A program made the translations under genes and the position numbers. The notes under the pieces are model-generated. The model was given only the letters and a program-made list of their open reading frames with translations. It searched no databases and had not been told where the DNA came from. A stretch of DNA of 64,000 nt from Syntrophales bacterium (GTDB taxonomy: Bacteria; Desulfobacterota; Syntrophia; Syntrophales; JACQWR01): assembly GCA_049302035.1 (NCBI GenBank), contig JBAQLR010000108.1, positions 4,886-68,885 of the forward strand, in the 5' to 3' direction. Position 1 is the first letter of the stretch. Every line of letters begins with the position of its first letter. Shown one piece after another: positions 49,087-63,267 of the stretch.

Positions 49087-49257
49087 ACCATTTACCCGTA
49101 TAATTATGGCCGATTACTTTCGTGCCAGTTTTATGTAATCCACACTCCCAATCCATATTCCCATCTAAAGGAAATGATGAATCAGACAGCACACAACTGA
49201 TAACTACAGCCCGCTCGGAGAAAGTATCATAAAAAAAACAAATGTCAACAACATTTT

Positions 49258-49291
49258 CGACAACGCTAAAATTGATGACCTCGTAAAAAGT
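49258..49291 (-). repeat. degenerate relic of the cassette-junction repeat (CJR)
   Basis: cgacaACGCTAAAattgatGACCTcgtAAAAAGT versus the consensus gcaaaACGCTAAAtttcaaGACCTgacccccAAAAGT. It lies downstream of galE2. Confidence 0.4.
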
Positions 49292-49357
49292 AAATTCCCC
49301 CCTCACCCATTACGACACAGTCTCCCACGGGGAGGGAATTTGGGACTTTTTACGAGG
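49279..49357 (-). terminator. long imperfect hairpin (about 26-bp stem) downstream of galE2
   Basis: Arms are at 49279-49304 and 49329-49357. The outer 13 bp are perfect (CCTCGTAAAAAGT / ACTTTTTACGAGG). It overlaps the CJR relic. Confidence 0.45.
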
Positions 49358-49366
49358 CCATCAAAG

Positions 49367-50353
49367 TTAGAGGCCTGAACCATTATGCAACCGCTGCTCC
49401 CACCGCCAGGCATCGGCAACGATCGTCGGGAGATCGTCAAAGCGCGGTTGCCAGCCGAGCTGTTCCCGGATGCGTTCCGCTTTAGCCACCAGACTGGCTG
49501 GATCTCCCGGGCGGCGCGGCGCTTCCAGGACGGCAAAATCAACCCCCGTGACCTCTTTCATCACCTTGATCACCTCCCGGACACTGCTGCCCTGGCCGTA
49601 ACCAACATTAAACGTCGTTGACTCGCCGCCCCCCTCCAGGTACTTGAGCGCCGCCAGATGGGCGCTTGCCAGATCCTCGATGTGGATATAATCACGAATC
49701 CCCGTGCCGTCAGGGGTCGGATAGTCCGTGCCAAAAATGGCGACAGCTTCCCGCATCCCCAGCGCCGCCTGGCAGCAAACCTTGATCAGGTGCGTGGCAT
49801 CGGGCGTCCGCTGCCCCATCCGCGCCTGCGGATCGGCGCCCGCCACATTGAAATAGCGGAGCGCGACATACTTAATGCCGTGTGCCAGGGCCGTATCCCG
49901 CAGCATCCATTCACTCATCAGTTTGGAAGCGCCATAGGGATTGATGGGAACGGTGGGACTTTCCTCCGCAGCCACGCCGGTTTTCGGCAAACCATAAACC
50001 GCCGCCGTACTGGAAAAGATAAACCGCCGCACCCCGAAACGAACACAAGCGGTAAGCAGATTCAGGGTGTTGCGGGTGTTGTTGTTGTAAAACTTGAGCG
50101 GCTCCGTGACCGACTCCGGCGCCACGATGGAAGCGGCAAAATGCAGCACCGTGTGGACAGGATGCTCCTCAAAAAGCGTTTGTAACGCCGCCGTATCGCC
50201 AAGCTCTCCCACAACCAGCTCTTCGCCATGGAGCAATGCAGCGGGCGAACCAGTCGAGAGATTGTCAAAAACAACCACCCGCTGCCCCGTCTCCGCAAGC
50301 TGCCGCACCACATGGCTCCCGATATAACCCGCCCCTCCCGTAACCAGAATCAT
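49367..50353 (-). CDS. galE: UDP-glucose 4-epimerase (second copy)
   Basis: 'MILVTGGAGYIGSH' and 'YGASKLMSE'. The start is trimmed to the Met at 50353. Confidence 0.85.
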   Translation of the reverse strand: MILVTGGAGYIGSHVVRQLAETGQRVVVFDNLSTGSPAALLHGEELVVGELGDTAALQTLFEEHPVHTVLHFAASIVAPESVTEPLKFYNNNTRNTLNLLTACVRFGVRRFIFSSTAAVYGLPKTGVAAEESPTVPINPYGASKLMSEWMLRDTALAHGIKYVALRYFNVAGADPQARMGQRTPDATHLIKVCCQAALGMREAVAIFGTDYPTPDGTGIRDYIHIEDLASAHLAALKYLEGGGESTTFNVGYGQGSSVREVIKVMKEVTGVDFAVLEAPRRPGDPASLVAKAERIREQLGWQPRFDDLPTIVADAWRWEQRLHNGSGL

Positions 50354-50442: not shown

Positions 50443-52296
50443 TCACTGCGGCATGTATTCCGGCACGATCTCTTTCAGTTTGCTTTTTATGGCCTCGGCA
50501 TCAAACCTATCCGCGATGACGACTAATTCATCAACCGCCGCCGAAATTTCTGCGTAGGAAAAATGATGATTTCCCCGCAGCACCATGATCTTTTCGTGAT
50601 GCGTCGGAATAATCCCCTCGCCTTCCGTAATCAGTTCTTCGTAGAGTTTTTCTCCCGGCCGCATGCCTGTCGTCACAATTTCGATATCTTTGCCTGGTTC
50701 TAAACCGCTTAGTTTGATCATGGAATGGGCCAAATCGATGATGCGCATGGGCTCGCCCATTTTCAGGATGAAGATTTCCCCACCCTTGCCCATCGCGCCG
50801 GCCTGCAAAATAAGCTGGGCGGCCTCGGGAATGCTCATGAAATAGCGGGTGACATCGGGATGGGTAATCGTTATCGGGCCGCCGGCGGCTATCTGTTGGC
50901 GGAAAAGGGGAATAACCGAGCCGGAACTGCCCAGCACATTGCCGAACCGCACGGCAAGAAATACCGTTTTAACACTGCCATTGAAGCTGGAAGAAAGAAT
51001 TTCGCAAATACGTTTTGTCGTCCCCATGACATTGGTGGGTCGCACGGCCTTGTCCGAGGAAACAAGGATAAATTTTTCGGCGTTGCAGGCGATGGCGGAA
51101 AGCGCCGTGTTCCTCGTTCCCAGCAGATTATTATGGACCGCTTCCCAGGGATTTACTTCCTGCATCGGCACATGTTTATAAGCGGCAGCATGGAAAACAA
51201 CCTGTGGTTTAAATTCCTGAAAGACACGTTCTGTCGCGCCGGGGTTCCGCAAATCGACAAGATAGGCGCAAACATCTTTATAGGCTAATATTTCCCGACA
51301 TTCCATCTCCACCTTATAAAGATTTAATTCGCTGAAATCCAGCAGGGCCAGAGCTTGCGGCCGAAATCGTGCAATCTGCCGCACGAGCTCCTCACCAATG
51401 GAGCCGCCGGCGCCGGTAATCAAAACGCGCTTCCCCAGGAGGTAGCTTTCTATCTCCTTATTGTCCAAGCGGACTTCCTCCCTGCCGATCAAGTCGGCGA
51501 TGGTGACTTCTCGCACCATCTTCAGGGAAACAAGTCCATCAATTAACTCGGCAATAGCCGGCATGGTCTTAAAAGGCTTGCCGGTACTTTTACACGCGAC
51601 GACAATACGTCGCATCTGAGTGCTGTTGGCCGAAGGCGACGTTATAAGAATCTCATCAAAAAAATCGCGATACGATTTTATCTGATCAATATTCCCCAGC
51701 ACGCAAATGCCATGGATAGATCTCCCTATTTTTTCATGGTCATCGTCGAGCAAACCGATGGGGACAAGCTTCACGCCGGGGTTTATCAGCATTTCGCGGA
51801 TAACGCGCTCCGCTGTTGTGCCGGCGCCAATGAGCAGCAACCTTTTGCCATCATGATGTTTTTCGTTCAGAAATAAAGACGGCCGCGTCTGCTCATTAGC
51901 CAAAGCAATGCGGATTGCCAGACGCGACCCGGCTATAAAGAATAACGTCAGTATGTAATCCATGATCACAATGGAATGTGAAAACCCCGCCAATCCGAAG
52001 AGAAATGTTTTGACCAGCACAAGCAGGACGGAGGCAGACGAAGTAGCCTTCAGAATATTCAGGAAATCCACCAGGCTGGTGTACCGCCACATCCCCCGGT
52101 AGAGATTAAAGACTATAAAACAAACCATCTTCAACGGCACGGCAACAAAGATGGTCTGCCTGAAAGTAACAAAGTAATCTTCCGGGATTCGCCCTTCAAA
52201 GCGCAACGCGTAAGCAAGGAAATACGCCAACCCGCTGAGAACTGCATCAACGGCAAACATCACCCAAAAGCTCTTATTCCTAACCAGTTGCTTCAT
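50443..52296 (-). CDS. membrane-bound nucleotide-sugar 4,6-dehydratase (CapD/PglF/WbpM-like)
   Basis: Four N-terminal TM helices, two Rossmann regions ('LLIGAGTTAE' and 'VLITGAGGSIGEEL') and 'MGTTKRICE'. Confidence 0.85.
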   Translation of the reverse strand: MKQLVRNKSFWVMFAVDAVLSGLAYFLAYALRFEGRIPEDYFVTFRQTIFVAVPLKMVCFIVFNLYRGMWRYTSLVDFLNILKATSSASVLLVLVKTFLFGLAGFSHSIVIMDYILTLFFIAGSRLAIRIALANEQTRPSLFLNEKHHDGKRLLLIGAGTTAERVIREMLINPGVKLVPIGLLDDDHEKIGRSIHGICVLGNIDQIKSYRDFFDEILITSPSANSTQMRRIVVACKSTGKPFKTMPAIAELIDGLVSLKMVREVTIADLIGREEVRLDNKEIESYLLGKRVLITGAGGSIGEELVRQIARFRPQALALLDFSELNLYKVEMECREILAYKDVCAYLVDLRNPGATERVFQEFKPQVVFHAAAYKHVPMQEVNPWEAVHNNLLGTRNTALSAIACNAEKFILVSSDKAVRPTNVMGTTKRICEILSSSFNGSVKTVFLAVRFGNVLGSSGSVIPLFRQQIAAGGPITITHPDVTRYFMSIPEAAQLILQAGAMGKGGEIFILKMGEPMRIIDLAHSMIKLSGLEPGKDIEIVTTGMRPGEKLYEELITEGEGIIPTHHEKIMVLRGNHHFSYAEISAAVDELVVIADRFDAEAIKSKLKEIVPEYMPQ

Positions 52297-52342: not shown

Positions 52343-52379
52343 GCCATAAAATTTTAAAGACCTGCCCCCCAAAGTTGCA
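52343..52379 (-). repeat. CJR copy 0 (diverged)
   Basis: gccataaaattttAAAGACCTGcCCCCCAAAGTTGCA. It contains the stop codon of ATPase 1. Confidence 0.55.
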
Positions 52380-53667
52380 TGTTGTTCGGGGTTTGAAAAT
52401 CAATTTGGTTGTTGTCGATCGTCCGGGCGGTTTCCAGGGAACGATTCAGGATCACGAATTTTTCCGGGTGGTAGGCGTCGATGAAGCTGCGGCCGGAGCG
52501 ACTGAGCCCGGGCCGATCCAGATCGGCGAATTTGACTTCCATGGCCATGATTTTCCCCGCCTGTTCGACCACGAAGTCCACCTCCCCACCGCCCTTGCTT
52601 CTCCAGAAATGGATGTCTGAAGTCAGCGGTATACGTTTGTAAAGCTCCGAGAACGCCCAGTTCTCCATCAGGGCGCCTTTGTCGGTTCTCAACAAAATGT
52701 CGTCCGAAAAGGCATTGAGCAACTGATTCCGTATCCCGTTATCGATAAAAAATATTTTAGGCGCCGTGGTAAGTTCCCGGCGCTTCCCGCCGGCAAAGGG
52801 CCGGACAACTTTGACGATATGGCTCTCCTCAAGAATTTCCACGTAGGCATGGATCGTGCCCGCGTCCACACGGCACACCGAAGCCAGTTCCGAAAAATTC
52901 ACAAGATTTCCGGTTTGTCCTGCCAGCAACGTGAGGAGTTTCCGGAAAACATCCACCCGTTTGATGCGGAAGAGATCCGATGCGTCTCGCAGTATCAAGG
53001 CTTCGGTCAGGTCGGAGAGCAGGCGAACCCGATCCTGGTCCGCGGGCGCAAGATAAACGGCCGGGTAACTGCCGTGGATCATCTGCCGGTGGAAAATTCT
53101 CTCGCATAAACTCCTCATGGCGACAGGATTCTCCGGGGTTTCCTGTCGCATCAATTCCTTGAGACTGAACGGCAGCAGCCGCAGCCGGTCCGCCCTGCCC
53201 GCGAGGGATTCCCTTGTCTTGCTCATCAAGTGGAAGGATGAAGAACCGGTCACCAGAACGGGGATGCCCAATCTGGCGTCTACCAACCCCTTCACGAAGA
53301 TGCCGGCGTCGGTCAGGTGTTGGGCTTCGTCAAGAAAGAGGGCACGGATGAAGGAATAGCGTTCCCGGAGCAGCGAAACAAGCTCTACAGCAACGCCGAG
53401 GACCGAGCGCAGGAGCGGGTCTTCCAGATTGAGGTAAAGAATATTGGGCGCAAGAGATTGGAGAAGGCGCCAGGCAAGGGTGGACTTCCCGGATTGACGG
53501 GGGCCGACGATGAGGAGGGCGCGATCTTTCCGGAGCGAAACCGGTTCAGGCTCGCGCAGAACATAGGTTCCGGGAAGATAGCGACGAATCAATCCGTCGG
53601 CCTGGCCAGGCTGCGTCAGCCAGGGATTGTATTGAAGTATCCGGTTTTGGACTTCGCCACTCAACAT
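52354..53667 (-). CDS. DUF4143-type AAA+ ATPase with a C-terminal PD-(D/E)xK-like motif (COG1373-like), paralogue 1
   Basis: Walker A 'GPRQSGKST' and Walker B 'LFLDEAQH'. The C-terminal motif is 'FWRSKGGGEVDFVVE...AMEVKF'. An alternative GTG start lies at 53673. Confidence 0.8.
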   Translation of the reverse strand: MLSGEVQNRILQYNPWLTQPGQADGLIRRYLPGTYVLREPEPVSLRKDRALLIVGPRQSGKSTLAWRLLQSLAPNILYLNLEDPLLRSVLGVAVELVSLLRERYSFIRALFLDEAQHLTDAGIFVKGLVDARLGIPVLVTGSSSFHLMSKTRESLAGRADRLRLLPFSLKELMRQETPENPVAMRSLCERIFHRQMIHGSYPAVYLAPADQDRVRLLSDLTEALILRDASDLFRIKRVDVFRKLLTLLAGQTGNLVNFSELASVCRVDAGTIHAYVEILEESHIVKVVRPFAGGKRRELTTAPKIFFIDNGIRNQLLNAFSDDILLRTDKGALMENWAFSELYKRIPLTSDIHFWRSKGGGEVDFVVEQAGKIMAMEVKFADLDRPGLSRSGRSFIDAYHPEKFVILNRSLETARTIDNNQIDFQTPNNMQLWGAGL

Positions 53668-53673
53668 GGCCAC

Positions 53674-53702
53674 TGTCTATCCTGTCTAATAATGATTGTC
53701 AA
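53674..53702 (-). promoter_or_regulatory. candidate promoter abutting the ATPase-1 start (leaderless layout)
   Basis: On the minus strand: TTGACA (53702-53697), 17 nt, TAGACA (53679-53674), 6 nt, ATG (53667). Confidence 0.45.
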
Positions 53703-53969
53703 CCATAATCAGCCATCATAATCGGGGATGTCTGCAAAAATAGGAATGGATAGGCGCTGTCTGTCCCCGGAAAAGCTTACAAGCTGTTTCAATACGTGTT
53801 TTCTTACACTGCCGTAGAGGGCTTTGTATATCAATCGAGGTAATTCGTCAAACCCTGTATTCCATTTTCTTCACTCGCACTATAGAAGTAAGCCCTTTAT
53901 CGAAGGGAACCATAGCGCTTTACATATCCCCCCTTTTGTGTTGGCAAAAGCGGTGAAGGTTTCTATTGC

Positions 53970-54090
53970 GAGACCTTTGAATTTTGTCATTTCGAGGAGC
54001 ATTAGCGACGAGAAATCTTAATGCTCGTGTATAGTTAAAGATTTCTCCCTTCGGTCGAAATGACAATATTGGCAGTTATTCAAAGGTCTC
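53970..54090 (+). mobile_element. 121-bp MITE, copy A
   Basis: Terminal inverted repeats GAGACCTTTGAAT...ATTCAAAGGTCTC. It is about 97-99% identical to the copies at 60830, 62414 and 62926. Confidence 0.85.
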
Positions 54091-54111
54091 AATGACGCCC
54101 TAATTAACCGT

Positions 54112-54152
54112 CCCCCCGGCAAAACGCTAAAAAGCAAGACCTGACCCCCAAG
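54112..54152 (-). repeat. CJR copy 1
   Basis: CCCCCCGGCAAAACGCTAAAAAGCAAGACCTGACCCCCAAG, 6 nt downstream of the sugar-transferase stop. Confidence 0.85.
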
Positions 54153-54158
54153 TACTCC

Positions 54159-54734
54159 TTAATGGTGAACATTCTCCGCCCGCGTAACCTTAAAAAACGT
54201 CAAAACCAGTATCTTCAAATCAAACCAAAACGAGCAGTGATGCAAATAATACTCATCAAACTCCACCTTTTGGGGAATCGGAATATCATCCCGGCCGTTA
54301 ATCTGCGCCCAGCCCGTGATCCCCGGAATTAATCGATGAACACCGCGTTCCGTCCGCAAGGCAATCAGATCATCCTGATTGAACAACGCCGGCCGGGGCC
54401 CCACAAAACTCATATCGCCCTTCAAAACACTCCACAATTGCGGTAATTCATCCAGACTTGATCTTCGCAGAAAGGGACCAATTGGCGTCAGAAACTGATC
54501 GGGATCCGATAACAAGTGCGTCGCAACCGCAGGCGTATCAATACGCATCGTCCTGAATTTCGGCATACGGAAAATACTGTTGTCCTTACCAACCCGATCA
54601 GACCAATATAAAAAAGGCCCTTTTGATGTCGTTTTCACCAAAAGGGCAACAATAATCATCGGAACGATTAAGACTAAAAGAAGAATTATCGTAGCAGTTA
54701 AATCAAATAATCGCTTAACGACCTTATAAACCAC
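54159..54734 (-). CDS. small polyprenyl-phosphate sugar-phosphate transferase (PglC/WbaP-C-terminal type)
   Basis: One TM helix, then '[25 protein letters not shown]...[21 protein letters not shown]'. The start codon is GTG. Confidence 0.85.
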
Positions 54735-54790
54735 CTGATTCCCGCATTCCCTACCTTGCTCTGTGGCTGGTTCAATCTTACAGATTGGAC

Positions 54791-54850
54791 CAAAACACTA
54801 AGCAACTATGAACTAAGAACTAATAACTAAAAAGACCTGACCCCCAAAAC
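54791..54850 (-). repeat. CJR copy 2, with a central 4 x 7-bp expansion
   Basis: CAAAACACTAAGC-[AACTATG AACTAAG AACTAAT AACTAAA; 54804-54831]-AAGACCTGACCCCCAAAAC. Confidence 0.8.
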
Positions 54851-54854
54851 TTGC

Positions 54855-55253
54855 TCACCACAAAACGTGCAACCCGTTTTTACGGTACGCTGAAAAGGCC
54901 TTGTCCTGAGATATGAGCGTTAGTTTGTGAGTAATGGCCTGCCAAATAATCAAACGGTCAAAGGGATCTTTGTGTTCCTTGCGCGGCAGGTTGTGAAAGG
55001 TGGCCGCATCTGTATCGGCAAGCGGCAGGATGTCAAAACCCGATTGGAGAACAAGTGCGGGGAAGTTCTCAGGCGTTACATTGCCCAGGTCAAGCCTGCC
55101 AATAGAATACTTGAGGGATATCTCCCAAAAGCTGACCACACTGACCAACACGGCCATGTCGGGGTTCCGGATACTAATCGCAGCTTTTTTCCCAAGCCGT
55201 TCGGGATCAAAAAGCGACCAGAGCAACGTATGTGTATCAAGAAGGAAACTCAT
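54855..55253 (-). CDS. vapC: PIN-domain toxin
   Basis: 'MSFLLDTHTLLW' and 'HKDPFDRLIIWQA' are VapC signatures. Confidence 0.85.
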   Translation of the reverse strand: MSFLLDTHTLLWSLFDPERLGKKAAISIRNPDMAVLVSVVSFWEISLKYSIGRLDLGNVTPENFPALVLQSGFDILPLADTDAATFHNLPRKEHKDPFDRLIIWQAITHKLTLISQDKAFSAYRKNGLHVLW

Positions 55254-55495
55254 AGAGACAGAAACTCATTCTCACTGATCTTGAAGTCATCCTTTAGGGA
55301 AAACGATGCCTTCCCGGCCAAGAGCCCTAACTTACGTTCCGGTTTGCGTTCGTAGTGCGAAAAGGGAACCAGCACGGCTATCTTCTCCTTCTTTTTGCCG
55401 AAGCTGATGACGATGTCCTCACCCTGTTGCACTAATTCAAGCGCCTTTGAAAAATGCGCTTTCACGTTACCAACTGTCATGGTATGCATAGCCAC
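55250..55495 (-). CDS. Phd/YefM-type antitoxin
   Basis: 81 aa. 'VKAHFSKALELVQQGEDIVI'. Its stop overlaps the vapC start. Confidence 0.7.
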   Translation of the reverse strand: MAMHTMTVGNVKAHFSKALELVQQGEDIVISFGKKKEKIAVLVPFSHYERKPERKLGLLAGKASFSLKDDFKISENEFLSL

Positions 55496-55514
55496 TTACC
55501 TCATTTTTTATTTC

Positions 55515-55543
55515 AGTATATGCTTTTCGTGACATGTTGTCAA
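55515..55543 (-). promoter_or_regulatory. candidate promoter of the phd-vapC cassette
   Basis: On the minus strand: TTGACA (55543-55538), 17 nt, TATACT (55520-55515). A GAGGT Shine-Dalgarno sequence precedes the ATG at 55495. Confidence 0.55.
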
Positions 55544-55584
55544 GAAAATGAAGGCAGTGCTATAGTACACTCAGCACTATCTTT

Positions 55585-55624
55585 CCCCGGCAAAACGCTA
55601 AAATGCAAGACCTGACCCCCAAAA
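55585..55624 (-). repeat. CJR copy 3
   Basis: CCCCGGCAAAACGCTAAAATGCAAGACCTGACCCCCAAAA. Confidence 0.85.
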
Positions 55625-55631
55625 TCATTGC

Positions 55632-55925
55632 TTAAAGGGTGGCCGAATTGAGCCAGTCTTCCAGGTTGACGTTCAAGGCCATGTTCCTCTTTTTCAGCAG
55701 CAGGAGAAAGTCCCAGGTGTCCAAATCCAGCAGGCGGCAGGCTTCTTCAACGGAAAGATCGCCGGTCTGATACTTCGCCAAAAGCCTCTCCTGCCTGTCT
55801 TCTGCAAACCCTTTTTGCAGGATTTCCCGCAGATACGCCGACTTATCGAGGCGCATATCTTTGACAAACGAGGTTAGCTCCTTCAAAAACTCTTCAGGTA
55901 TCCTCACGGTTGCCGGTTTCAACAT
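55632..55925 (-). CDS. UPF0175-family antitoxin-like protein
   Basis: 'VRIPEEFLKEL...LAKYQTGDLSVEEACRLLDLDTWDFLLLLKK' fits the UPF0175/COG2886 pattern. Confidence 0.55.
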   Translation of the reverse strand: MLKPATVRIPEEFLKELTSFVKDMRLDKSAYLREILQKGFAEDRQERLLAKYQTGDLSVEEACRLLDLDTWDFLLLLKKRNMALNVNLEDWLNSATL

Positions 55926-56475
55926 TTCCCATCTCCTTCAGTATCAATAAAGCTTCAGCAATGATATCCGGTGCATACTGTCCCTCAATGCGCATCTTTT
56001 CAATGGCTGCTTTTGCCAAAGGTTTTTCGATGCATCCATGCCGGTACAGCTCCGTGGCGATCTTCGGGGATATGATAAAGGGCAGATTCAGAAATCTGCA
56101 TGTTTTAATGGCCTTCCCGTCGTCCGTGGCCAGGATCGCGCCTTCGCCCATCTCCTGTGCGAGCCTGATTGCCGCCCATTCCCCCTTGCCAAGCGTAAGG
56201 GGAGGCTTGCGATCCGGTAATTCTTTGGAGAATATTTCAATGTTTCCCTGTGAAGTCATGACGGATATACTTTTCGCATCGGGAAACTTCTCGATCGTAT
56301 CCTGATTGACCACTTCTTCGAATACCGCCGCCGGGATGATTGAGTCAAGACGAAAAACCAGAAACTGTAGAAACGCTAAAATGTGTATTGTTAAAAGGGT
56401 GCGGGCTGATTCGGAGAGCTTTTCCGGCTGGCCGGCAGCCCACAGGACAATGTGGGTATCGAGCAGCAGCTTCAC
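55894..56475 (-). pseudogene. chimeric ORF: VapC N-terminal fragment fused through a CJR half-site to an N-terminally truncated COG2405/DUF3368-like PIN protein
   Basis: Residues 1-29, 'MKLLLDTHIVLWAAGQPEKLSESARTLLT', are a VapC N-terminus. The linker 'IHILAFLQF' is encoded by the half-repeat at 56369-56384. The remainder, 'IPAAVFEEV...LGKGEWAAIRLAQE...ILATDDGKA', is DUF3368-like and lacks its first Asp segment. Confidence 0.55.
56369..56384 (-). repeat. CJR half-site (distal half only)
   Basis: AGAAACGCTAAAATGT matches the repeat up to its centre, after which the similarity stops. Confidence 0.6.
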
Positions 56476-56732
56476 GAAGGCGTTCCTTCAAAAAGTTCGA
56501 CCAGCGACCTTGCCGCCAGAGAATCAAAATCGTCGGGTACCGCAATCTCACCGGCCATAAACCCCAGCTTTTCAGCCCCTTGCAACTCCCCTTCCGATAG
56601 CGGCGAAACCTTAACCATCGGCTTGCCTGCCTTGGCAATGATAAAAACATTCCCTTTGGCGGCCTCATCGACCAGGCGTGAAAGGTGCGTCTTCGCTTCG
56701 TGGATATTGACGGTTTGCATGGAACACCTCAT
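56472..56732 (-). CDS. Phd/YefM-type antitoxin
   Basis: 86 aa. 'VNIHEAKTHLSRLVDEAAKGNVFIIAKAGKPMVKV'. Its stop overlaps the truncated vapC start (ATGA). Confidence 0.7.
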   Translation of the reverse strand: MRCSMQTVNIHEAKTHLSRLVDEAAKGNVFIIAKAGKPMVKVSPLSEGELQGAEKLGFMAGEIAVPDDFDSLAARSLVELFEGTPS

Positions 56733-56799
56733 AGGACTTAGTTTAGTGGGCTAAGCCTAATCTTCTCATATTCAGCCTTTGTCAAGTTTTCCTCTTGCT

Positions 56800-56839
56800 C
56801 CCCGGAAAAACGCTAAATGTTCAAGACCTGACCCCCAAA
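56800..56839 (-). repeat. CJR copy 4
   Basis: CCCCGGAAAAACGCTAAATGTTCAAGACCTGACCCCCAAA. It contains the mazF-like stop codon. Confidence 0.85.
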
Positions 56840-57186
56840 TAGAGGCTGTTCTTGAGCGCCATGTCCACCTTTTCCATGAGCTCATCTGAGAGAGTCGCAA
56901 GTTTCGACCCGGTCAACCGCCCCTTATCGAGGGTGCGGATCTGTGAGAGATTGACGATGGAATCCTTTTTCAGGCCGGAATCTTTGCCGATGACTACGCA
57001 GATTGGGTAAGTAGCTTTTTTCTCGGAATATTCGGTGATGACGGCGACGATGGTCGTGGGTGAATACCGATTGCCGACATCGTTCTGAACAATCAGCACC
57101 GGCCGGGTTTTTCCGGTTTCGCTTCCCACCACTGGGTCGAGCGCTGCGTAATAGATTTCTCTTCTTTTGACCTGCAGAGGAGTCAT
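56821..57186 (-). CDS. MazF/PemK-family toxin
   Basis: 'REIYYAALDPVVGSETGKTRPVLIVQNDVGN'. Confidence 0.85.
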   Translation of the reverse strand: MTPLQVKRREIYYAALDPVVGSETGKTRPVLIVQNDVGNRYSPTTIVAVITEYSEKKATYPICVVIGKDSGLKKDSIVNLSQIRTLDKGRLTGSKLATLSDELMEKVDMALKNSLYLGVRS

Positions 57187-57461
57187 GGAGCAACCTCGGG
57201 GAGATTTTCGGCGTCAGAGAATTTGAAATCCTCACAGATACGGATGTTTTCCTCGGCGAGATCCTGATAGGCTGCTTTCATTCGTGCCTCGAGATCCTGC
57301 CTGTCGAGCTGCATTAATTTTTCCTCGATGGATTCCCGCACGAGTGTGGAAACATTTTTCCCTTCCCGGGTAGAGGCTTGGGAAAGCCTGTTCTTGATCT
57401 CTGCAGAGAGTTGAATATTGAGCCGCGTTTTTTCCTGCTGTGCCGTTGAGAGCATTTTCAC
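57183..57461 (-). CDS. ribbon-helix-helix (CopG-like) antitoxin
   Basis: 'RLNIQLSAEIKNRLSQASTREGKNVSTLVRESIEEKL'. It overlaps the toxin start. Confidence 0.65.
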   Translation of the reverse strand: MKMLSTAQQEKTRLNIQLSAEIKNRLSQASTREGKNVSTLVRESIEEKLMQLDRQDLEARMKAAYQDLAEENIRICEDFKFSDAENLPEVAP

Positions 57462-57542
57462 ACCTCTATTTTATGTATAAATGATGTGTAATATCTTGTA
57501 GCAAAAAACGACAGGGAGAGCAATGGAAAATCTTCCCCACCT

Positions 57543-57589
57543 CCCCGGCAAAACGCTAAATTTCAAGACCTGACCCCCAAAAAGTTGCA
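57543..57589 (-). repeat. CJR copy 5 (closest to consensus)
   Basis: CCCCGGCAAAACGCTAAATTTCAAGACCTGACCCCCAAAAAGTTGCA. It encodes the last 10 codons of ATPase 2. Confidence 0.9.
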
Positions 57590-58734
57590 ATATTTTGCCA
57601 GGGGACTATCGAAATGTTTTTGTTGGTCAGGGCTTTATCTCCGCCATAAATTAGCCGGGCCGGCGCTTCCGGCTGCCCGGCCAGCTTCAGCCAACGCTTT
57701 AGTGACGTGAAGGAATCCGGAGCGATTGTCTGCCCCGATTTAATTTCGATTGCCTCGAGTTCCTCGCCCTCTTCCCGGATCAGATCGATTTCCAGACCTT
57801 TACTATCTCTCCAATAAAAGAGATTTGCCGGCAGCCCCTCGTTGAAGCGGCCTTTTAAAAATTCGGTCACCACAAACGTCTCAAATAGCGCTCCCCGCTG
57901 GGCATGAAAGCGAACCTGTTCCGGGGTGTTAATTCCCAGCAACCAGGCCGCCAAACCGACATCGCAGAAATACAACTTGGGTGCCTTGATCAAGCGTTTA
58001 TTGAAGTTCCGGTGATGGGGGCGCAGCAGATAGATCAGATAACTCGCCTCCAGGACGGATATCCACGCTGCCGCGGTATTATGCGTAATGCCGCAATCGG
58101 AGGCCAGTGATGACAAGTTCAGAATTTGACCGGTGCGGGCGGCGCACATCTTGACGAAGCGCTGGAATGCCGAGAGATCGCGGACGTTGATCAACTGTCG
58201 CGCATCCCGTTCCACATAGGTGGCGATGTAGCCGGAAAACCAGTCGCCGGAAAAAATGTCACGGTCGTACAGCGGGGGGTACAATCCCCGCACCAGCAGC
58301 TCTTCAAGAGAATCAGGCAGCTGCCGAACAGCGGCAAGCTCTTCGGCGGCAAAGGTCAGCAGGTGTATCATCCCGACACGCCCCGCTAATGATTGAGTAA
58401 TGCCCGACAGCAGCCCAAATTGCTGAGAACCGGTCAATACAAACATACCGGGGATGATTTTCTCATCCACTTTTGTCTGGAGATAGGAGAAAAGGTGCGG
58501 CGCACGCTGAGCTTCATCCAGGATCGCGCCGTCACGAAAAGCGGCCAAAAGACCTCGGGGGTCGCTTTCCGCCGTGGCTCTGACATCGGGATCTTCCAGC
58601 GACAGATAGGGTTTTTGGGGGAAGGTCAGTTTTGCCAGCGTGGTCTTGCCGGATTGACGCGGCCCCGTAATGGCAACGATGGGAAAGCCTTTTGCCAGAC
58701 GGAGCAGGGCTTTTTGTGCTGTTCTCGGTATCAT
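57556..58734 (-). CDS. DUF4143-type AAA+ ATPase/nuclease-like, paralogue 2
   Basis: Walker A 'GPRQSGKTT' and Walker B 'AILDEAQR'. The C-terminal motif is 'YWRDSKGLEIDLIRE...AIEIKSG'. Confidence 0.8.
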   Translation of the reverse strand: MIPRTAQKALLRLAKGFPIVAITGPRQSGKTTLAKLTFPQKPYLSLEDPDVRATAESDPRGLLAAFRDGAILDEAQRAPHLFSYLQTKVDEKIIPGMFVLTGSQQFGLLSGITQSLAGRVGMIHLLTFAAEELAAVRQLPDSLEELLVRGLYPPLYDRDIFSGDWFSGYIATYVERDARQLINVRDLSAFQRFVKMCAARTGQILNLSSLASDCGITHNTAAAWISVLEASYLIYLLRPHHRNFNKRLIKAPKLYFCDVGLAAWLLGINTPEQVRFHAQRGALFETFVVTEFLKGRFNEGLPANLFYWRDSKGLEIDLIREEGEELEAIEIKSGQTIAPDSFTSLKRWLKLAGQPEAPARLIYGGDKALTNKNISIVPWQNIATFWGSGLEI

Positions 58735-58740
58735 GGGTGC

Positions 58741-58791
58741 ATATTATGCGGAGTTGCACATATTGTCAATACAATTTACAATATGTGCAAC
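58741..58791 (-). promoter_or_regulatory. candidate leaderless promoter plus a perfect 14-bp inverted repeat
   Basis: On the minus strand: TTGACA (58769-58764), 17 nt, TAATAT (58746-58741), 6 nt, ATG (58734). The inverted repeat GTTGCACATATTGT (58753-58766) / ACAATATGTGCAAC (58778-58791) overlaps the -35 element. Confidence 0.5.
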
Positions 58792-58792
58792 T

Positions 58793-58824
58793 CAAAACGC
58801 TAAATTTCAAGACCTGACCCCCAA
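58793..58824 (-). repeat. CJR copy 6
   Basis: CAAAACGCTAAATTTCAAGACCTGACCCCCAA, directly after the PIN-gene stop (58825-58827). Confidence 0.9.
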
Positions 58825-59223
58825 TTACTTGCTAATTGCAGACCAGAATCCTCTTGGGGTCACGATTTTCGTGTCCTTATAGGCAAGCAGACATAATAAA
58901 TCCTGGTCTCCCGTGATTATGTATTCTGCCAATGAACGGTGAGCGAGGCCCAACACATGAATATCGTTCTTATCTCTGCACAATGACTCATCTAAATCAT
59001 CGGTCCCGGAAACAAGACAATTTTCTCTCAAATACGACACGATCAACCGGCATTGCGGTAAGGGGAGCTTGATTTTTCGCTCTAAATTTGTTGATACTTC
59101 CGCTAAAATCGCTTCACTCACGATGACATCAAACCGGTCAAGGCAGAGCTCGAAAACTGCGCTGCAGAGCCCACGACTGGCAAAGGCAGCAATGATCACA
59201 TTGGTATCAAGAATGACCTTCAT
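58825..59223 (-). CDS. PIN-domain toxin
   Basis: 'MKVILDTNVIIAAF' and 'YIITGDQDLL'. Confidence 0.8.
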   Translation of the reverse strand: MKVILDTNVIIAAFASRGLCSAVFELCLDRFDVIVSEAILAEVSTNLERKIKLPLPQCRLIVSYLRENCLVSGTDDLDESLCRDKNDIHVLGLAHRSLAEYIITGDQDLLCLLAYKDTKIVTPRGFWSAISK

Positions 59224-59438
59224 GAAATCATGTTGAATATATCTTCATCAGACAATATGCCCTGCGCCTCTGCAAATGGCAGTACCATATTTTTTAACCT
59301 GCGAAAGCGGTAAATAGCCAAATACCGTTTTAAGGATTCGCGCACGATATCACTCACCGGTTTATTCTCGTTTCTGCTTAATTCCTGCAACCCTTCTCTC
59401 ATGTCATCGGGCAGCCGGATAGTAAGAGTTTGATTCAT
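59220..59438 (-). CDS. ribbon-helix-helix antitoxin
   Basis: 'LTIRLPDDMREGLQELSRNENKPVSDIVRESLKRYL'. Confidence 0.65.
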   Translation of the reverse strand: MNQTLTIRLPDDMREGLQELSRNENKPVSDIVRESLKRYLAIYRFRRLKNMVLPFAEAQGILSDEDIFNMIS

Positions 59439-59453
59439 AGAGCACCTCCATTC

Positions 59454-59489
59454 GTGTTACAACGTAACACGCCCTGGTATTGCTGTCAA
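59454..59489 (-). promoter_or_regulatory. candidate promoter and operator of the RHH-PIN cassette
   Basis: On the minus strand: TTGACA (59489-59484), 17 nt, TACGTT. The palindrome GTGTTAC-aac-GTAACAC (59454-59470) overlaps the -10. A GGAGG Shine-Dalgarno sequence precedes the ATG. Confidence 0.45.
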
Positions 59490-59519
59490 CAAAAAACCGC
59501 GCAATAACATCGGGACAGA

Positions 59520-59559
59520 CAAAACGCTAAATTTCAAGACCTGACCTCCAAAAATTGCA
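59520..59559 (-). repeat. CJR copy 7
   Basis: CAAAACGCTAAATTTCAAGACCTGACCTCCAAAAATTGCA. It contains the ATPase-3 stop codon. Confidence 0.9.
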
Positions 59560-60679
59560 TTTCTGACAACCAGTTTTGAGCGGTGCGGATTTCCAGGCCG
59601 TCGGGATAGGTTTTTTCCCTTTTGAGTTCCTTGACAATCTGGATTTTTTTTGCGCCGGGCAGATATTTCTCGAATAAAGAAAATTTCGCACGACCCTCCG
59701 CATCGCTCCATTTAACTTCGAGCATCAGTGCCGGCTTATCTTCCCTGGTGAGAAAAAAATCAATCTCCCTGCCGTCCTTGTTTCTGAGGTAATAAACGTT
59801 CCATTTTTCGCCGAGGCAATCCTCGCGGAAATGCATTTCTTTCAGCAAGGCACAGGCAACAAGATTTTCCAGCTTCATTCCCGGATCATCCGGCGCCTGC
59901 CCGGTATCGTAAAAATAGTATTTGGGCGCCTTGAGAATGGACCGGGAAATGTTGCGATGAAAAGGGGGTACCTTGAAAACGACATAGAGTGTTTCCAGAA
60001 TAGTCAGCCATCTCTTGACGGTCTTGTCCGAACACTGAAGATCCTCGGCCAGCGAGCTGTATGATATGGGACTGCCAATCTTTCTCCTCAGAAGCTGGAT
60101 GAGTGTTTCAAACGAAGTTATCTGCTGCACATTTTCCAGATCGATCAAGTCCTGCTTCAGAATGATGTCCAGATGGCTTCTCTTCCAGCGATTGTAATAG
60201 GACGCATCGCTTTCCAGAAAGGGCTCAGGAAATCCGCCGATCGCCAAAAGCCTGTCAAGTTTTTCCTCCAGTTTATCTGGCCCCAGCACACTTTTAATTT
60301 CCTTCAGATCAAGGGGGTGGAGCCGAAACTCAAAAAACCTTCCCGCCAGGGAATCGCCTGCCTTTTTAAAGACATCCAGCTTTGCGCTTCCGGTCACCAC
60401 CAGGGAAGGCGGGATGCTTTCGGCATCGTAGATGCCCTTCAGCCATGATTTCCAGTTCTTGAGTTTGTGAAGCTCGTCAAAAATCACCAGATCTTTGGAG
60501 CGATCCCATGACTTATCCAGCAGACTCAGGCGGTGTTCGGCATAATCATAATTGAAATAATCGAAATTATGACTGAGCATCTTTGCCAGGGTCGTCTTGC
60601 CGACCTGTCTCGGGCCGGTGATCAGGACGATTTTTCTTTTAAGATCTTTCTGAATGTATTCTTCGAGGTATCTCTTCAT
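59534..60679 (-). CDS. DUF4143-type AAA+ ATPase/nuclease-like, paralogue 3
   Basis: Walker A 'GPRQVGKTT' and Walker B 'VIFDELHK'. The C-terminal motif is 'YYLRNKDGREIDFFL...MLEVKWS'. Confidence 0.8.
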   Translation of the reverse strand: MKRYLEEYIQKDLKRKIVLITGPRQVGKTTLAKMLSHNFDYFNYDYAEHRLSLLDKSWDRSKDLVIFDELHKLKNWKSWLKGIYDAESIPPSLVVTGSAKLDVFKKAGDSLAGRFFEFRLHPLDLKEIKSVLGPDKLEEKLDRLLAIGGFPEPFLESDASYYNRWKRSHLDIILKQDLIDLENVQQITSFETLIQLLRRKIGSPISYSSLAEDLQCSDKTVKRWLTILETLYVVFKVPPFHRNISRSILKAPKYYFYDTGQAPDDPGMKLENLVACALLKEMHFREDCLGEKWNVYYLRNKDGREIDFFLTREDKPALMLEVKWSDAEGRAKFSLFEKYLPGAKKIQIVKELKREKTYPDGLEIRTAQNWLSEMQFLEVRS

Positions 60680-60685
60680 GCGGCT

Positions 60686-60728
60686 ATTCTATCCTGCATT
60701 CCGAAAAAGTCAAGACTTTTTCGGAATG
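60686..60728 (-). promoter_or_regulatory. candidate leaderless promoter plus a 15-bp inverted repeat
   Basis: On the minus strand: TTGACT (60713-60708), 16 nt, TAGAAT (60691-60686), 6 nt, ATG (60679). The inverted repeat CATTCCGAAAAAGTC (60697-60711) / GACTTTTTCGGAATG (60714-60728) is centred on the -35 element. Confidence 0.5.
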
Positions 60729-60741
60729 GCTGCCTGTTCCT

Positions 60742-61113
60742 ATGGACATTATAGCCATGCAGCATTCAGGTTTAAGTGTGAGACAAATTGCCCGTAAACT
60801 GGGCATTCACAGAAATACGGTGAAGAAGCGAGACCTTTGAATTTTGTCATTTCGGGGAGCATTAGCGACGAGAAATCTTAATGCTCGTGCATAGTTAAAG
60901 ATTTCTCCCTTCGGTCGAAATGACAATATTGGCAGTTATTCAAAGGTCTCGCAGCATATTGAGAACAAAGCGTTTCCTCATTACCATCAGTCTAAACGAG
61001 GCGTAAGCATTCTGGAACCATATAAGCAAATCATCAACGATTACCTTGACCAGGATGACTACCAGGCAACCTGGGTTTTCGATAGAATCAAAAGGACCGG
61101 ATATCCCGGTTTC
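60742..61113 (+). pseudogene. IS21-family istA 5' remnant, split by a MITE and truncated at a CJR
   Basis: It reads 'MDIIAMQHSGLSVRQIARKLGIHRNTVKK', then the MITE, then 'HIENKAFPHYHQSKRGVSILEPYKQIINDYLDQDDYQATWVFDRIKRTGYPG'. This is an IstA-type HTH N-terminus and nothing follows it. Confidence 0.6.
60830..60950 (+). mobile_element. 121-bp MITE, copy B
   Basis: Same element and orientation as copy A. The flanks GAAGC / GCAGC look like an imperfect 5-bp duplication. Confidence 0.85.
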
Positions 61114-61153
61114 CAAAACGCTAAATTTCAAGACCTGACCCCCAAAAGTTGCA
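61114..61153 (-). repeat. CJR copy 8
   Basis: CAAAACGCTAAATTTCAAGACCTGACCCCCAAAAGTTGCA. It contains the ATPase-4 stop codon. Confidence 0.9.
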
Positions 61154-62282
61154 GTTTTTCTATTAAGGTGGGGAGGCTCACAAATGTTACTTCTATCCCT
61201 TTGTAATTTCTGCTAAACGGTTTTTCGACATCCGTGGCCGCCACCAGGGAATCTCCTTCGGGATAACGTTCACGAAACAGTTTCAGATTACCCGGATCGA
61301 AATCGGTCGCCGACCATTTGCATTCAATCGCCACCGGCGGCTTTCCTCTTGCGGCGATCACAAAATCAATTTCATGACCGCGCTTATCACGCCAGTACAT
61401 CACATTCCTCATCTGGAGACGTCCCTGAATCTCGTTCAGGACATAATGCTCCCAGAGCAGCCCCCGGTCTTCCCGCCGGAGTTCACGCCATCCCCGGTAA
61501 TAACAGACAAATCCCGTATCAAAGCCATACACTTTGGGAGCGGAAATGATCTCCGCCGCCTTGTTGCTGCTGAAGGGCCGGACAATGTGCGCCACGTAGG
61601 TCGCCTCGAGAACGGCAAGGTAATTGGCAATGGTCGGCCGGCTGACCTCGCAGGGTCCGGTAAAGCGTGATGCCTCAAAAATGCCGCCGCTCTGCGCCAT
61701 CAGCAGCTCGAAAAACCGCTGGAAGGCGTGTCGACGGCCCAGATGAAAGAGCTCTTGAATATCTTTCGCCCAATAACCGTCCACCCAATCCTGGAAATTC
61801 CGCTCCGGCACGGTCTCGGATAAATAGAACGGCGGCATTCCCCCAAAAAGCAGCCGCTTCGCCAGATCGGCATCCCCGAAATCGGCAAGATCCTGCACCA
61901 GCATGGGGGTGAGCCAGAGGGACTCCTTGCGGCCCGTCAGCGTATCCTTGAATTTGGCGGATGCGCCCAGGGTGGAAGAACCGGTGGCAAGAATCCGCAC
62001 ATCCGGATAGTGATCTGCAGCGATCTTGAGAAGCTCCGAGGGATTTTGCAGACGATGGATTTCGTCGAGGATGATCGTGCGCCCCCGGAGGGGTCGAAGA
62101 AACCCTTCGGCATCTTCCAGCATCGCCCGAACACGGGGCAGCTCGCAATCGAAGTATTCAGCATCCGTAAGACTCTGGCTCAGAAAGGTCTTCCCCACGC
62201 GCCTGACCCCGGAGAGCCAGATCACCGATCGCCTTTCCCAAGCCTTGCCTATCTGTTCCAACCAGAATGATCTTTTCTTCAT
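61128..62282 (-). CDS. DUF4143-type AAA+ ATPase/nuclease-like, paralogue 4
   Basis: Walker A 'GVRRVGKTF' and Walker B 'IILDEIHR'. The C-terminal motif is 'MYWRDKRGHEIDFVI...AIECKWS'. Confidence 0.8.
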   Translation of the reverse strand: MKKRSFWLEQIGKAWERRSVIWLSGVRRVGKTFLSQSLTDAEYFDCELPRVRAMLEDAEGFLRPLRGRTIILDEIHRLQNPSELLKIAADHYPDVRILATGSSTLGASAKFKDTLTGRKESLWLTPMLVQDLADFGDADLAKRLLFGGMPPFYLSETVPERNFQDWVDGYWAKDIQELFHLGRRHAFQRFFELLMAQSGGIFEASRFTGPCEVSRPTIANYLAVLEATYVAHIVRPFSSNKAAEIISAPKVYGFDTGFVCYYRGWRELRREDRGLLWEHYVLNEIQGRLQMRNVMYWRDKRGHEIDFVIAARGKPPVAIECKWSATDFDPGNLKLFRERYPEGDSLVAATDVEKPFSRNYKGIEVTFVSLPTLIEKLQLLGVRS

Positions 62283-62335: not shown

Positions 62336-62348
62336 CAAAACGCTAAAT
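62336..62348 (-). repeat. CJR half-site (distal half only)
   Basis: CAAAACGCTAAAT, after which similarity to the consensus ends. Confidence 0.6.
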
Positions 62349-62413
62349 CACCGCGAAGCAGGCCCGATAGTTTTGGTTGAGGCAAACCCATACGGCGCCC
62401 GGCTTCCTCTTGT

Positions 62414-62534
62414 GAGACCTTTGAATAACTGCCAATATTGTCATTTCGACCGAAGGGAGAAATCTTTAACTATGCACGAGCATTAAGATTTCTCGTCGCT
62501 AATGCTCCTCGAAATGACAAAATTCAAAGGTCTC
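62414..62534 (-). mobile_element. 121-bp MITE, copy C
   Basis: Reverse orientation relative to A and B, flanked by a direct CTTGT duplication. Confidence 0.9.
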
Positions 62535-62770: not shown

Positions 62771-62806
62771 CCCCGGCAAAACGATAAATTTAAAGACCCC
62801 CAAAAC
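62771..62806 (-). repeat. CJR copy 10 (variant with a 5-nt internal deletion)
   Basis: CCCCGGCAAAACGATAAATTTAAAGAC-----CCCCAAAAC. Confidence 0.75.
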
Positions 62807-62846: not shown

Positions 62847-63267
62847 ATGTACGAGATTATGCAGAGTGCCACATTCTCCCAATGGTTGAGTGGCTTGAAA
62901 GACCAACAGGCACGAATGCGCATACGAGACCTTTGAATAACCGCCAATATTGTCATTTCGACCGAAGGGAGAAATCTTTAACTATGCACGAGCATTAAGA
63001 TTTCTCGTCGCTAATGCTCCTCGAAATGACAAAATTCAAAGGTCTCGCATACATGTGCGACTTGACCGTGTTAGGTTGGGCAATTTTGGTGATGCAGAGC
63101 CCACTGGGGAAGGACTTTCCGAATTGCGTATTCACTACGGCCCAGGTTATCGGCTATATTACATTCGGCGCGCGCTACGGGTCGTGATGTTGTGCGGTGG
63201 CGATAAGTCCTCTCAGCCCCACGATATTGAAAAAGCGAAAATAATCGCTAAGGAATGGAGGGATTAG
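62847..63267 (+). pseudogene. higB: HigB/RelE-type 'addiction module killer' toxin gene interrupted by a MITE
   Basis: It reads 'MYEIMQSATFSQWLSGLKDQQARMRI', then the MITE, then 'HVRLDRVRLGNFGDAEPTGEGLSELRIHYGPGYRLYYIRR...CGGDKSSQ'. Removing the MITE and one GCATAC copy restores the frame. Confidence 0.75.
62926..63046 (-). mobile_element. 121-bp MITE, copy D
   Basis: Same orientation as C, flanked by a direct GCATAC duplication. Confidence 0.9.

Follow-up and report, generated by a model that had tools for sequence, protein, structure and literature searches.

A short DNA repeat at the gene junctions of a toxin-antitoxin/ATPase array in a Syntrophales bacterium and its probable relation to Y1/HUH transposases

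Results

Gene Content of the Array and Distribution of the Repeat Copies

The stretch of DNA analyzed here comprises 64 kb of a Syntrophales bacterium (contig JBAQLR010000108.1 of assembly GCA_049302035.1; hereafter, the window), in which a short repeat of 28 to ~45 nt marks each junction between genes from 52.3 to 62.8 kb. The genes concerned, identified by Pfam, form an island of toxin-antitoxin pairs and ATPases that sits inside a polysaccharide locus (Table 1). A scan of the window with the core of the repeat, AAGACCTGACCCCCAA, revealed nine occurrences, all on the + strand and between 52357 and 61145. When up to three mismatches were allowed, ten matches were obtained as compared to 0.6 expected, a number attained in none of 100 shuffled sequences. 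The copies are restricted to 52.3-62.8 kb and to a single strand, the remaining 52 kb being devoid of them. In total, 12 copies and relics were counted within 10.5 kb: seven full copies, two left halves, two right halves and one copy with an internal deletion.

On the minus strand, from which the genes are read, the consensus is (T)GCAA(C/G)TTTTG-GGGGTCAGGTCTT-nnnn-TTTAGCGTTTT-GCCGGGG. The central part, GGGGTCAGGTCTT-nnnn-TTTAGCGTTTT, represents the 28-nt unit, and the blocks to its left and right are frequent extensions that bring the repeat to ~38-45 nt. Of the three forward frames of the unit, two contain a stop codon (TGA or TAG), and a TAA is present on the opposite strand.

Among the genes of the island, orf193 (55894-56475, minus strand) is a chimera in which ~30 N-terminal residues of a VapC/PIN protein are joined in frame to a DUF3368 PIN-like protein, the fusion point being a repeat relic at 56370-56384. 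The DUF3368 part pairs with the downstream UPF0175 gene. An intact Phd-VapC cassette is retained in L034 (labels of the type L### denote loci or contigs fetched from other genomes or metagenomes). Since VapC is truncated in orf193, the upstream Phd antitoxin is left without its toxin.

Table 1. Genes of the array and its flank, and copies of the junction repeat (positions in the window).
Feature	Position	Strand	Remarks
CapD-like Polysacc_synt_2 gene	50443-52296	-	Conserved flank of the array
ATPase1, AAA_14 + DUF4143	52354-53673	-	Pfam; cassette gene
Bac_transf sugar transferase	54159-54734	-	Pfam; member of the polysaccharide locus, bracketed by repeat copies
Phd/YefM antitoxin + PIN toxin cassette	54855-55495 (PIN 54855-55253)	-	Pfam
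Composite cassette: Phd antitoxin, chimeric VapC-N/DUF3368 open reading frame, UPF0175	55632-56732 (UPF0175 55632-55925)	-	Pfam and comparison with L034
Ribbon-helix-helix (RHH) antitoxin + MazF/PemK toxin cassette	56821-57461 (MazF 56821-57186)	-	Pfam
ATPase2, AAA_14 + DUF4143	57556-58734	-	Pfam; cassette gene
RHH antitoxin + PIN_3 toxin cassette	58825-59438 (PIN_3 58825-59223)	-	Pfam
ATPase3, AAA_14 + DUF4143	59534-60679	-	Pfam; cassette gene
ATPase4, AAA_14 + DUF4143	61128-62282	-	Pfam; orthologue in L101 (91.6%)
Left-half copy (TGCAACTTTGGGGGGCAGGTCTTTAAAATTTTA)	52349-52381	-	Forms the end of ATPase1; last copy before the CapD-like gene
Full copy, 28 nt	54121-54148	-	9 nt past the sugar-transferase stop; orthologous place in L071 without copy
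Left-half copy	54832-54858	-	Past the stop codon of PIN; heptad-like repeats follow
Full copy	55592-55619	-	After the UPF0175 gene
Right-half relic (ATTTTAGCGTTTC)	56370-56384	-	Within orf193, at the VapC N-terminus/DUF3368 fusion point
Full copy, 29 nt	56807-56835	-	Gives MazF its LGVRS-stop
Full copy, 0 mismatches	57550-57577	-	Gives ATPase2 its WGSGLEI-stop
Full copy, 0 mismatches	58794-58821	-	PIN_3 stop (TAA) within the extended GCAAGTAATTG part
Full copy, GGAGGTC variant	59521-59548	-	Gives ATPase3 its LEVRS-stop
Full copy, 0 mismatches	61115-61142	-	Gives ATPase4 its LGVRS-stop; adjoins the truncated IS21-like transposase gene on the GTTTT side
Right half only	62337-62348	-	Upstream of ATPase4; full copy at the equivalent place in L101
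Copy with internal deletion (TTTTGGGGGTCTTTAAATTTATCGTTTTGCCGGGG)	62778-62806	-	Uppermost copy of the window

Several genomes have heptad-like short tandem repeats (CTGAGTG / TTAGTTC type) beside left-half copies, on the upstream side of the neighboring gene. They are located at 54780-54830 in the window, at ~270-300 and ~1715-1744 in L102, at ~1260-1300 in L026 and at ~1070-1095 in L071. Outside the array and unrelated to it, the window contains a transfer-messenger RNA (tmRNA) gene at 25729-26082 (minus strand), with the tag peptide ADNYDYALAA, which was the only match of the whole window to Rfam at gathering thresholds and was likewise the only gene reported by ARAGORN.

Gene Ends at the Repeat

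Five genes read into the repeat, in two reading frames, and four terminate just short of it. The genes of MazF, ATPase3 and ATPase4 end with TTG GGG/GAG GTC AGG TCT TGA (...L(G/E)VRS-stop), that of ATPase2 with TGG GGG TCA GGT CTT GAA ATT TAG (...WGSGLEI-stop), and ATPase1 ends in ...WGAGL-stop. The stop codons of PIN_3, PIN, UPF0175 and the sugar transferase precede the GGGG of the unit by 2-11 nt, three of the four being located at or directly before its extended GCAAG part. An earlier note, made from this DNA alone, had described these frames and had placed the stops of the same four genes just before the repeat; every frame was re-checked gene by gene and found to be correct, and the four early stops were confirmed.

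The tails encoded by the repeat are not shared by homologous proteins, as the earlier note had predicted for native C-termini. Among 120 MazF homologues, 119 end with ...(K/R)NSLAL(x)-stop, and the sole protein ending with ...YLGVRS is a 99%-identical Syntrophales copy. Homologues of ATPase2 are conserved up to ...VPWKNI and have unrelated tails thereafter; repeat-derived tails occur only in relatives of 98-100% identity and in one of 89%, in other frames (ATFWGGR, QVLGVTH). Furthermore, the 3' end of the ATPase4 orthologue of L101 (91.6% identical) lacks the repeat and differs in its last ~15 codons, and the copy downstream of the sugar-transferase gene is missing next to its 85.7%-identical orthologue in L071. 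Given that the tails are not conserved and that orthologues without the copy exist, the tails are by-products of a DNA element, which supports the original proposal of a DNA-level element instead of a conserved C-terminus. As the unit carries stop codons and lies at or inside the 3' ends of genes, it rewrites them: the last codons of five genes have been replaced by the repeat, yielding the ...GVRS-stop and ...WGSGL...-stop tails. For annotation, the consequence is that the repeat produces spurious C-terminal tails and a chimeric open reading frame (ORF), orf193.

Distribution in Other Genomes

An exact-pattern scan restricted to one genome per species returned at least 115 loci. Most of the loci listed belong to metagenome-assembled genomes (MAGs) assigned to Syntrophales, Syntrophaceae or Syntrophus, with many contigs per MAG: at least 17 contigs with the repeat in CAYLZN, at least 11 in CAYSSF and at least 8 in MICN01. 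Three arrangements were observed in the fetched loci: singletons (129), inverted doublets (27) and tandem pairs (3). Every doublet has its GGGG ends outside. The arms are 28 nt long, the loops mostly 5-15 nt, and the 4-nt center co-varies between the arms; they are perfect 28-bp hairpins between genes, the dxs-tlyA spacer of L005 being one such place. None of the 27 doublets was seen to be flanked by target-site duplications, and the window itself has no inverted doublet. A sequence related to the repeat but diverged from it (ACTTTTTACGAGGTCATCAATTTTAGCGTTG) does form an inverted pair in the window, at 49255-49291 and 49345-49370, 53 nt apart and between two polysaccharide genes, and this pair is head-to-head, contrary to the 27 doublets of the other loci.

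The repeat was also found outside the Syntrophales. A Vicinamibacteraceae-labelled MAG of 69% GC carries at least 13 doublets (L024, L030, L032, L053, L069, L083, L098, L113), and Chlorobiaceae-labelled contigs of 61% GC and 74-220 kb carry the 28-mer as well (L028, L055, L089), which in these two sets of loci differs solely in its 4-nt center. The oddly labelled short contigs are probably in part mis-binned; judged from composition, the hosts truly differ. Such a distribution suggests that the repeat has spread between distant lineages, in contrast to the repeat-transposase systems considered below, which are described as vertically inherited. The search of viral contigs gave zero matches, so that carriage by phages is not supported. 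The repeat probably breaks metagenome assemblies, as many fetched contigs are short and have an end at or close to one of its copies.

Association With Y1 Transposases

Of the 115 loci fetched by the pattern, 7 have a Y1_Tnp gene next to the repeat (among the matches listed), and that of L086 has inverted copies on its two sides. The best match of the transposases in NCBIfam was NF047646 (REP-associated tyrosine transposase, RAYT; REP, repetitive extragenic palindromic), on which the L086-type protein scored 80.3 bits (cut-off, 80), and the IS200 model scored far lower (E = 0.005). The best match in the PDB was 4ER8, the TnpA-REP of E. coli (E = 1.3e-5), the alignment including the HUH and Y..NPV motifs. 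The L086-type RAYT has ~286 amino acids and a C-terminal helix-turn-helix (HTH).

The association was tested independently with 80 metagenome loci fetched by the L086 RAYT protein alone. All homologues of at least 58% identity with enough flanking sequence have a forward copy of the repeat 11-73 nt upstream (237 nt in L129-L131), and most of them also have a reverse copy located between -7 and +70 nt from the stop codon, with 0-3 mismatches. Homologues of ~50% identity show a like layout at 6-9 mismatches, in which mainly the outer GGGGTCAGGTCTTGC is kept. The stop codon of the RAYT gene (CGC TAA) falls inside its downstream copy. In related genomes the full element consists of a RAYT gene between two copies of the repeat in inverted orientation, the GGGG ends of which lie on the outside.

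Two further placements were noted. In L124, L125, L134 and L138, a co-oriented copy lies 19-26 nt upstream of the RAYT gene and a forward copy another 300-500 nt outward; in this position the RAYT gene resembles a cassette between co-oriented copies. In L064 (153-3166), repeat copies immediately precede an orthologue of the CapD-like gene, as they do in the window, and a cluster of copies with a RAYT-like gene immediately follows it. Since the CapD-like orthologue of L064 is likewise located beside repeat copies, the polysaccharide locus is a recurrent home of the repeat element.

Organization of the Arrays

Rows of three to five co-oriented singletons, 0.3-1.6 kb apart, are present in L062, L026, L102, L097, L054 and other loci, and the ORFs enclosed in arrays outside the window encode MNT/HEPN, YoeB, HigB/ParE, AbiEii, HepT, Phd and AAA_14/DUF4143 proteins. 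Consecutive singletons spaced 300-2000 nt apart were co-oriented in 27 cases and opposite in 5 (23:5 without the window), although these pairs, like the block ends counted below, are not independent events; by locus, 13 were all-same, 3 all-opposite and 2 mixed. In a small sample of pairs more than 2 kb apart, 6 had the same orientation and 5 the opposite. Given the ratio of 27:5 at short spacing as compared to 6:5 beyond 2 kb, co-orientation is local and not replichore-wide, and a strand bias over the whole replichore is unsupported as its cause by this small sample.

With respect to the adjacent gene, the orientation of singletons was about evenly divided among the four possible classes (31/23/29/28). 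In the other arrays the genes mostly run against the unit, whereas in the window they run with it, and each given cassette keeps its own orientation relation to the unit. An element fixed to the 3' ends of genes is ruled out by the even orientation of singletons and by the reversed arrays.

Comparisons between MAG loci revealed that 57 of 179 internal ends of homology blocks (32%, again not independent events) lie within 25 nt of a site or half-site, as compared to 3.2% expected. L057, L062 and L077 have a YoeB/YefM unit in common (82-90% identical) that lies between unrelated neighbors, and the next cassette of L057 was found again in L097.

Scars are present at several copies. In the window, only a right half is present at 62337, where L101 has a full copy, and the relic at 56370 marks the cut of VapC after ~30 codons. 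The N-terminal fragment of an IS21-like transposase (60740-61110, + strand) is interrupted by a miniature inverted-repeat transposable element (MITE) and truncated at the border of the 61115 copy; in L203, a contig of a near-identical strain, the gene reads on for at least 168 amino acids. Elsewhere, stutters of the left end are common, and several copies carry a ~35-nt insert (TTGAGCGAAGCGGCAATCTGGGGTTGGGGCCCCTCA) in the exact center of the unit, between GGTCTTGAA and ATTTAGCG (L064, 2252-2345 and 36-62; L111, 26-90, 3027-3090 and ~4050-4105), which is either a longer variant of the repeat or a second tiny element targeting its center. Regarding recent mobility, exact-protein look-ups of ATPase2 and PIN_3 retrieved solely the same array in near-identical strains.

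The MITE-like element itself is ~124 nt long, with terminal inverted repeats GAGACCTTTGAAT, and has four copies of 98-99% identity in the window (53967-54090, 60828-60951, 62411-62534 and 62925-63048), the last of which interrupts a Gp49/HigB-like toxin gene. The polymorphism of its insertions, active or recent, is evident from two copies: that at 60828-60951 is missing at the same place in L203, which is of the same strain, and that at 62925-63048 in L001-L004. Relatives include one of 82% identity in L012 and a related element that fills a spacer in L050.

Discussion

The layout of the E. coli REPtron and the cleavage of single-stranded DNA (ssDNA) by TnpA-REP have been described (PMC3333891), as have REPINs, which are hairpin-forming REP doublets (PMC3116915, PMC5581495). 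Because the RAYT gene lies between inverted repeat copies, and because doublets and dispersed copies occur as well, the junction repeat is read here as the REP of a RAYT/REPIN-type system. It is probably a REP-type selfish repeat of a RAYT (Y1/HUH transposase) system. The earlier note had proposed a recombination site or a selfish DNA motif: the second term stands, and can now be specified as a REP-type repeat linked to a Y1 transposase, and a recombination site is compatible with the ends of homology blocks at the repeat but not in the form of an integron attC. The family is best filed as working like REP/REPIN-RAYT, given the layout of the RAYT genes and their repeat copies, with the reservations on palindrome, GTAG and one of the two protein types that follow.

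Several findings weigh against a REP-type reading. The substrate of E. coli TnpA-REP must be an imperfect palindrome preceded by a GTAG tetranucleotide (PMC3333891), and the single 28-nt unit is no palindrome, has no GTAG and begins with GGGG. The L064-type protein reaches only 72.2 bits on NF047646, below the cut-off of 80. No RAYT gene was found in the 64-kb window, and in L124, L134 and L138 the upstream copy of the RAYT gene is co-oriented and not inverted. The 28-mer is present in MAG loci of 39-69% GC with several phylum labels, and such a spread suggests a horizontally moving insertion sequence (IS) or MITE more than a vertically inherited REPIN. With regard to the arrays, the dependence among the pair and block-end counts has been mentioned. 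No excised circle and no clean empty site were found, the orthologous spacer holding a singleton (L103), an unrelated MITE (L050) or a doublet (L008). The breakpoints of half-sites cluster in the center and right half of the unit at no single fixed nucleotide, and a single sharp cleavage point was ruled out.

Other explanations were weighed against the same data. A functional C-terminal peptide motif, for instance a sorting or degradation tag, would account for three proteins that end in ...(G/E)VRS and two that contain WG(S/A)GL; its probability is practically nil, since one DNA block is read in two frames, the tails are missing from 119 of the 120 MazF and from nearly all ATPase homologues, and four genes stop before the block. 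The two-frame reading and the tails of the homologues refute a conserved motif. A chromosomal integron, or a cluster of attC sites lacking integrase (CALIN), with the repeat as attC recombined by an IntI encoded outside the window, would explain a row of one- to two-gene cassettes rich in toxin-antitoxin modules, a conserved and directly oriented site at each junction and ORF ends that overlap the site, and the window does stop 1.2 kb beyond the last copy, so that intI could be located further out. Sites of the attC type measure ~55-140 nt, have R''/L''/L'/R' boxes, fold into a hairpin on the bottom strand and have the 3' box GTTRRRY. The conserved unit is shorter (28-45 nt), its 3' box is GTTTTGC, it lacks R/L boxes, and eight junctions folded as ssDNA on both strands shared no hairpin (z-scores from -1.5 to +0.8). 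Moreover, the site is located on many contigs per genome, with singletons and inverted doublets in intergenic regions of housekeeping genes (the dxs-tlyA doublet of L005), the gene-to-site orientation flips between arrays, and the gene that is consistently flanked by the site encodes a Y1 transposase. No integrase was found in the array and its flanks, among 77 cassette ORFs of 25 other loci, or among the 25 of 58 ORF families listed for the rest of the window. With no shared hairpin and no integrase found in these ORFs, the attC/integron explanation was rejected as extremely improbable.

An action at the RNA level, as 3'-end, terminator or stabilizing element for which DNA mobility is secondary, appears very unlikely. 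Copies do lie within a few nucleotides of stop codons and doublets form perfect 28-bp intergenic hairpins, and classical REPs are reported to stabilize the upstream mRNA and to affect translation when located near stop codons. However, singletons, which are the form present in the window, showed no significant fold on either strand, the whole-window Rfam search gave no match to the repeat, and the orientation relative to the adjacent genes is about evenly split and is reversed in most other arrays. An ordinary horizontally moving IS with a Y1 transposase is unlikely too, though less so. The repeat would then be its terminal inverted repeat (TIR), doublets would be MITEs, singletons solo ends, and the cassette pattern an accident of insertion tolerance, with no domesticated REPIN-like relationship. 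The compact order of TIR, 20-60 nt, ORF and TIR (~0.95 kb, with the ORF stop inside the TIR), the same sequence in hosts of 39-69% GC and several phylum labels, and the copies that abut other mobile DNA (the MITE and the IS21 remnant) agree with such an element. On the other hand, target-site duplications were not seen around the 27 doublets, the best matches of the protein are RAYT and not IS200, and random solo ends would not give a co-orientation of 27:5 or a tenfold excess of block ends. Apart from the interpretation of the arrays and the label, this IS and the REP-type repeat amount to the same.

If the repeat is a REP of a RAYT system, the RAYT may bind and cleave it as ssDNA and, by analogy with TnpA-REP and IS608, would spread repeat doublets as ssDNA hairpins. 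The inverted doublet would represent the non-autonomous derivative of the RAYT element, a REPIN-like hairpin with 28-nt arms and a loop of 5-15 nt, whereas single copies are dispersed in intergenic DNA. We infer that the arrays, with their co-oriented rows, arose by recombination between repeat copies. A circle with one copy, integrating at another copy, would have co-oriented copies on both sides and keep the orientation of the cassette, the exchange being either of the RecA type, over ~40 nt of identity, or catalyzed by the RAYT. As an outcome, the units from repeat to repeat would act as exchangeable cassettes and build integron-like arrays.

A stronger version, which we consider doubtful but worth stating, is that the co-oriented singletons are working recombination sites of an integron-like system run by the HTH-bearing RAYT and not by a tyrosine-recombinase integrase. 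Segments with toxin-antitoxin, MNT/HEPN and DUF4143-ATPase genes would be excised as circles with a single repeat and re-inserted at any copy, by which arrays of defense and addiction genes would be built and shuffled within Syntrophales and across lineages. Such a system is allowed by the 27:5 co-orientation, the block ends (32% vs. 3%), the half-sites, the 35-nt central insert and the RAYT "cassettes" of L124 and L134, evidence which equally allows plain homologous recombination between copies. Should the repeats be the exchange points, they would represent a second, integrase-free route to cassette arrays, and the value of the finding would rise sharply if the exchange of single-copy cassettes proved to be driven by the transposase.

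Comparison With Known Systems

A literature search retrieved no description of this repeat family or of rows of toxin-antitoxin cassettes bounded by REPs. The array resembles sedentary chromosomal integrons and CALIN in its small cassettes, often of toxin-antitoxin genes, in the single direct site per junction, in the ORF ends that enter the site and in the occurrence of the same cassette with different neighbors across genomes. It differs from them in that no IntI and no attC hairpin or R/L boxes were found, in a site of half the size that is dispersed genome-wide and forms inverted doublets, in the varying gene-to-site orientation and in a Y1 HUH partner.

Small non-autonomous inverted-repeat elements such as the Correia elements of Neisseria and the ERIC/IRU (enterobacterial repetitive intergenic consensus/intergenic repeat unit) MITEs of enterobacteria lie at or in gene termini, where they supply stop codons or alter C-termini. 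The present repeat likewise sits at gene termini and remodels gene ends. In contrast to those elements, no target duplication was seen, the doublets measure ~62-75 bp, and the partner is a Y1 and not a DDE transposase. The pdif modules of Acinetobacter plasmids, in which 28-bp XerC/D sites bound resistance or toxin-antitoxin modules in different contexts, are similar with respect to discrete modules of one or two genes, including toxin-antitoxin pairs, 28-bp sites and varied contexts. The pdif sites alternate in orientation, have a XerC-spacer-XerD structure and are used by the host Xer recombinases, none of which was seen here.

REP and REPIN-RAYT systems have been studied mainly in enterobacteria and pseudomonads, in which they are seen as vertically inherited, genome-specific palindromic repeats. 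As in REP/bacterial interspersed mosaic elements (BIMEs) and REPIN-RAYT systems, including the REPtron of E. coli and the REPINs of Pseudomonas (PMC3333891, PMC3116915, PMC5581495), the repeat is short, intergenic and dispersed, forms hairpins as inverted doublets and brackets a Y1/HUH gene with inverted copies, target duplications are not seen, and the protein finds its best matches in the RAYT family model and in the structure of TnpA-REP. Compared to the classical REPs, the distinguishing traits are a non-palindromic single unit without GTAG, an HTH-bearing L086-type RAYT of ~286 amino acids, near-identical copies of the 28-mer in MAGs of very different GC (39-69%) and taxonomic label, and co-oriented rows of singletons that delimit cassettes and partition shared toxin-antitoxin/ATPase units.

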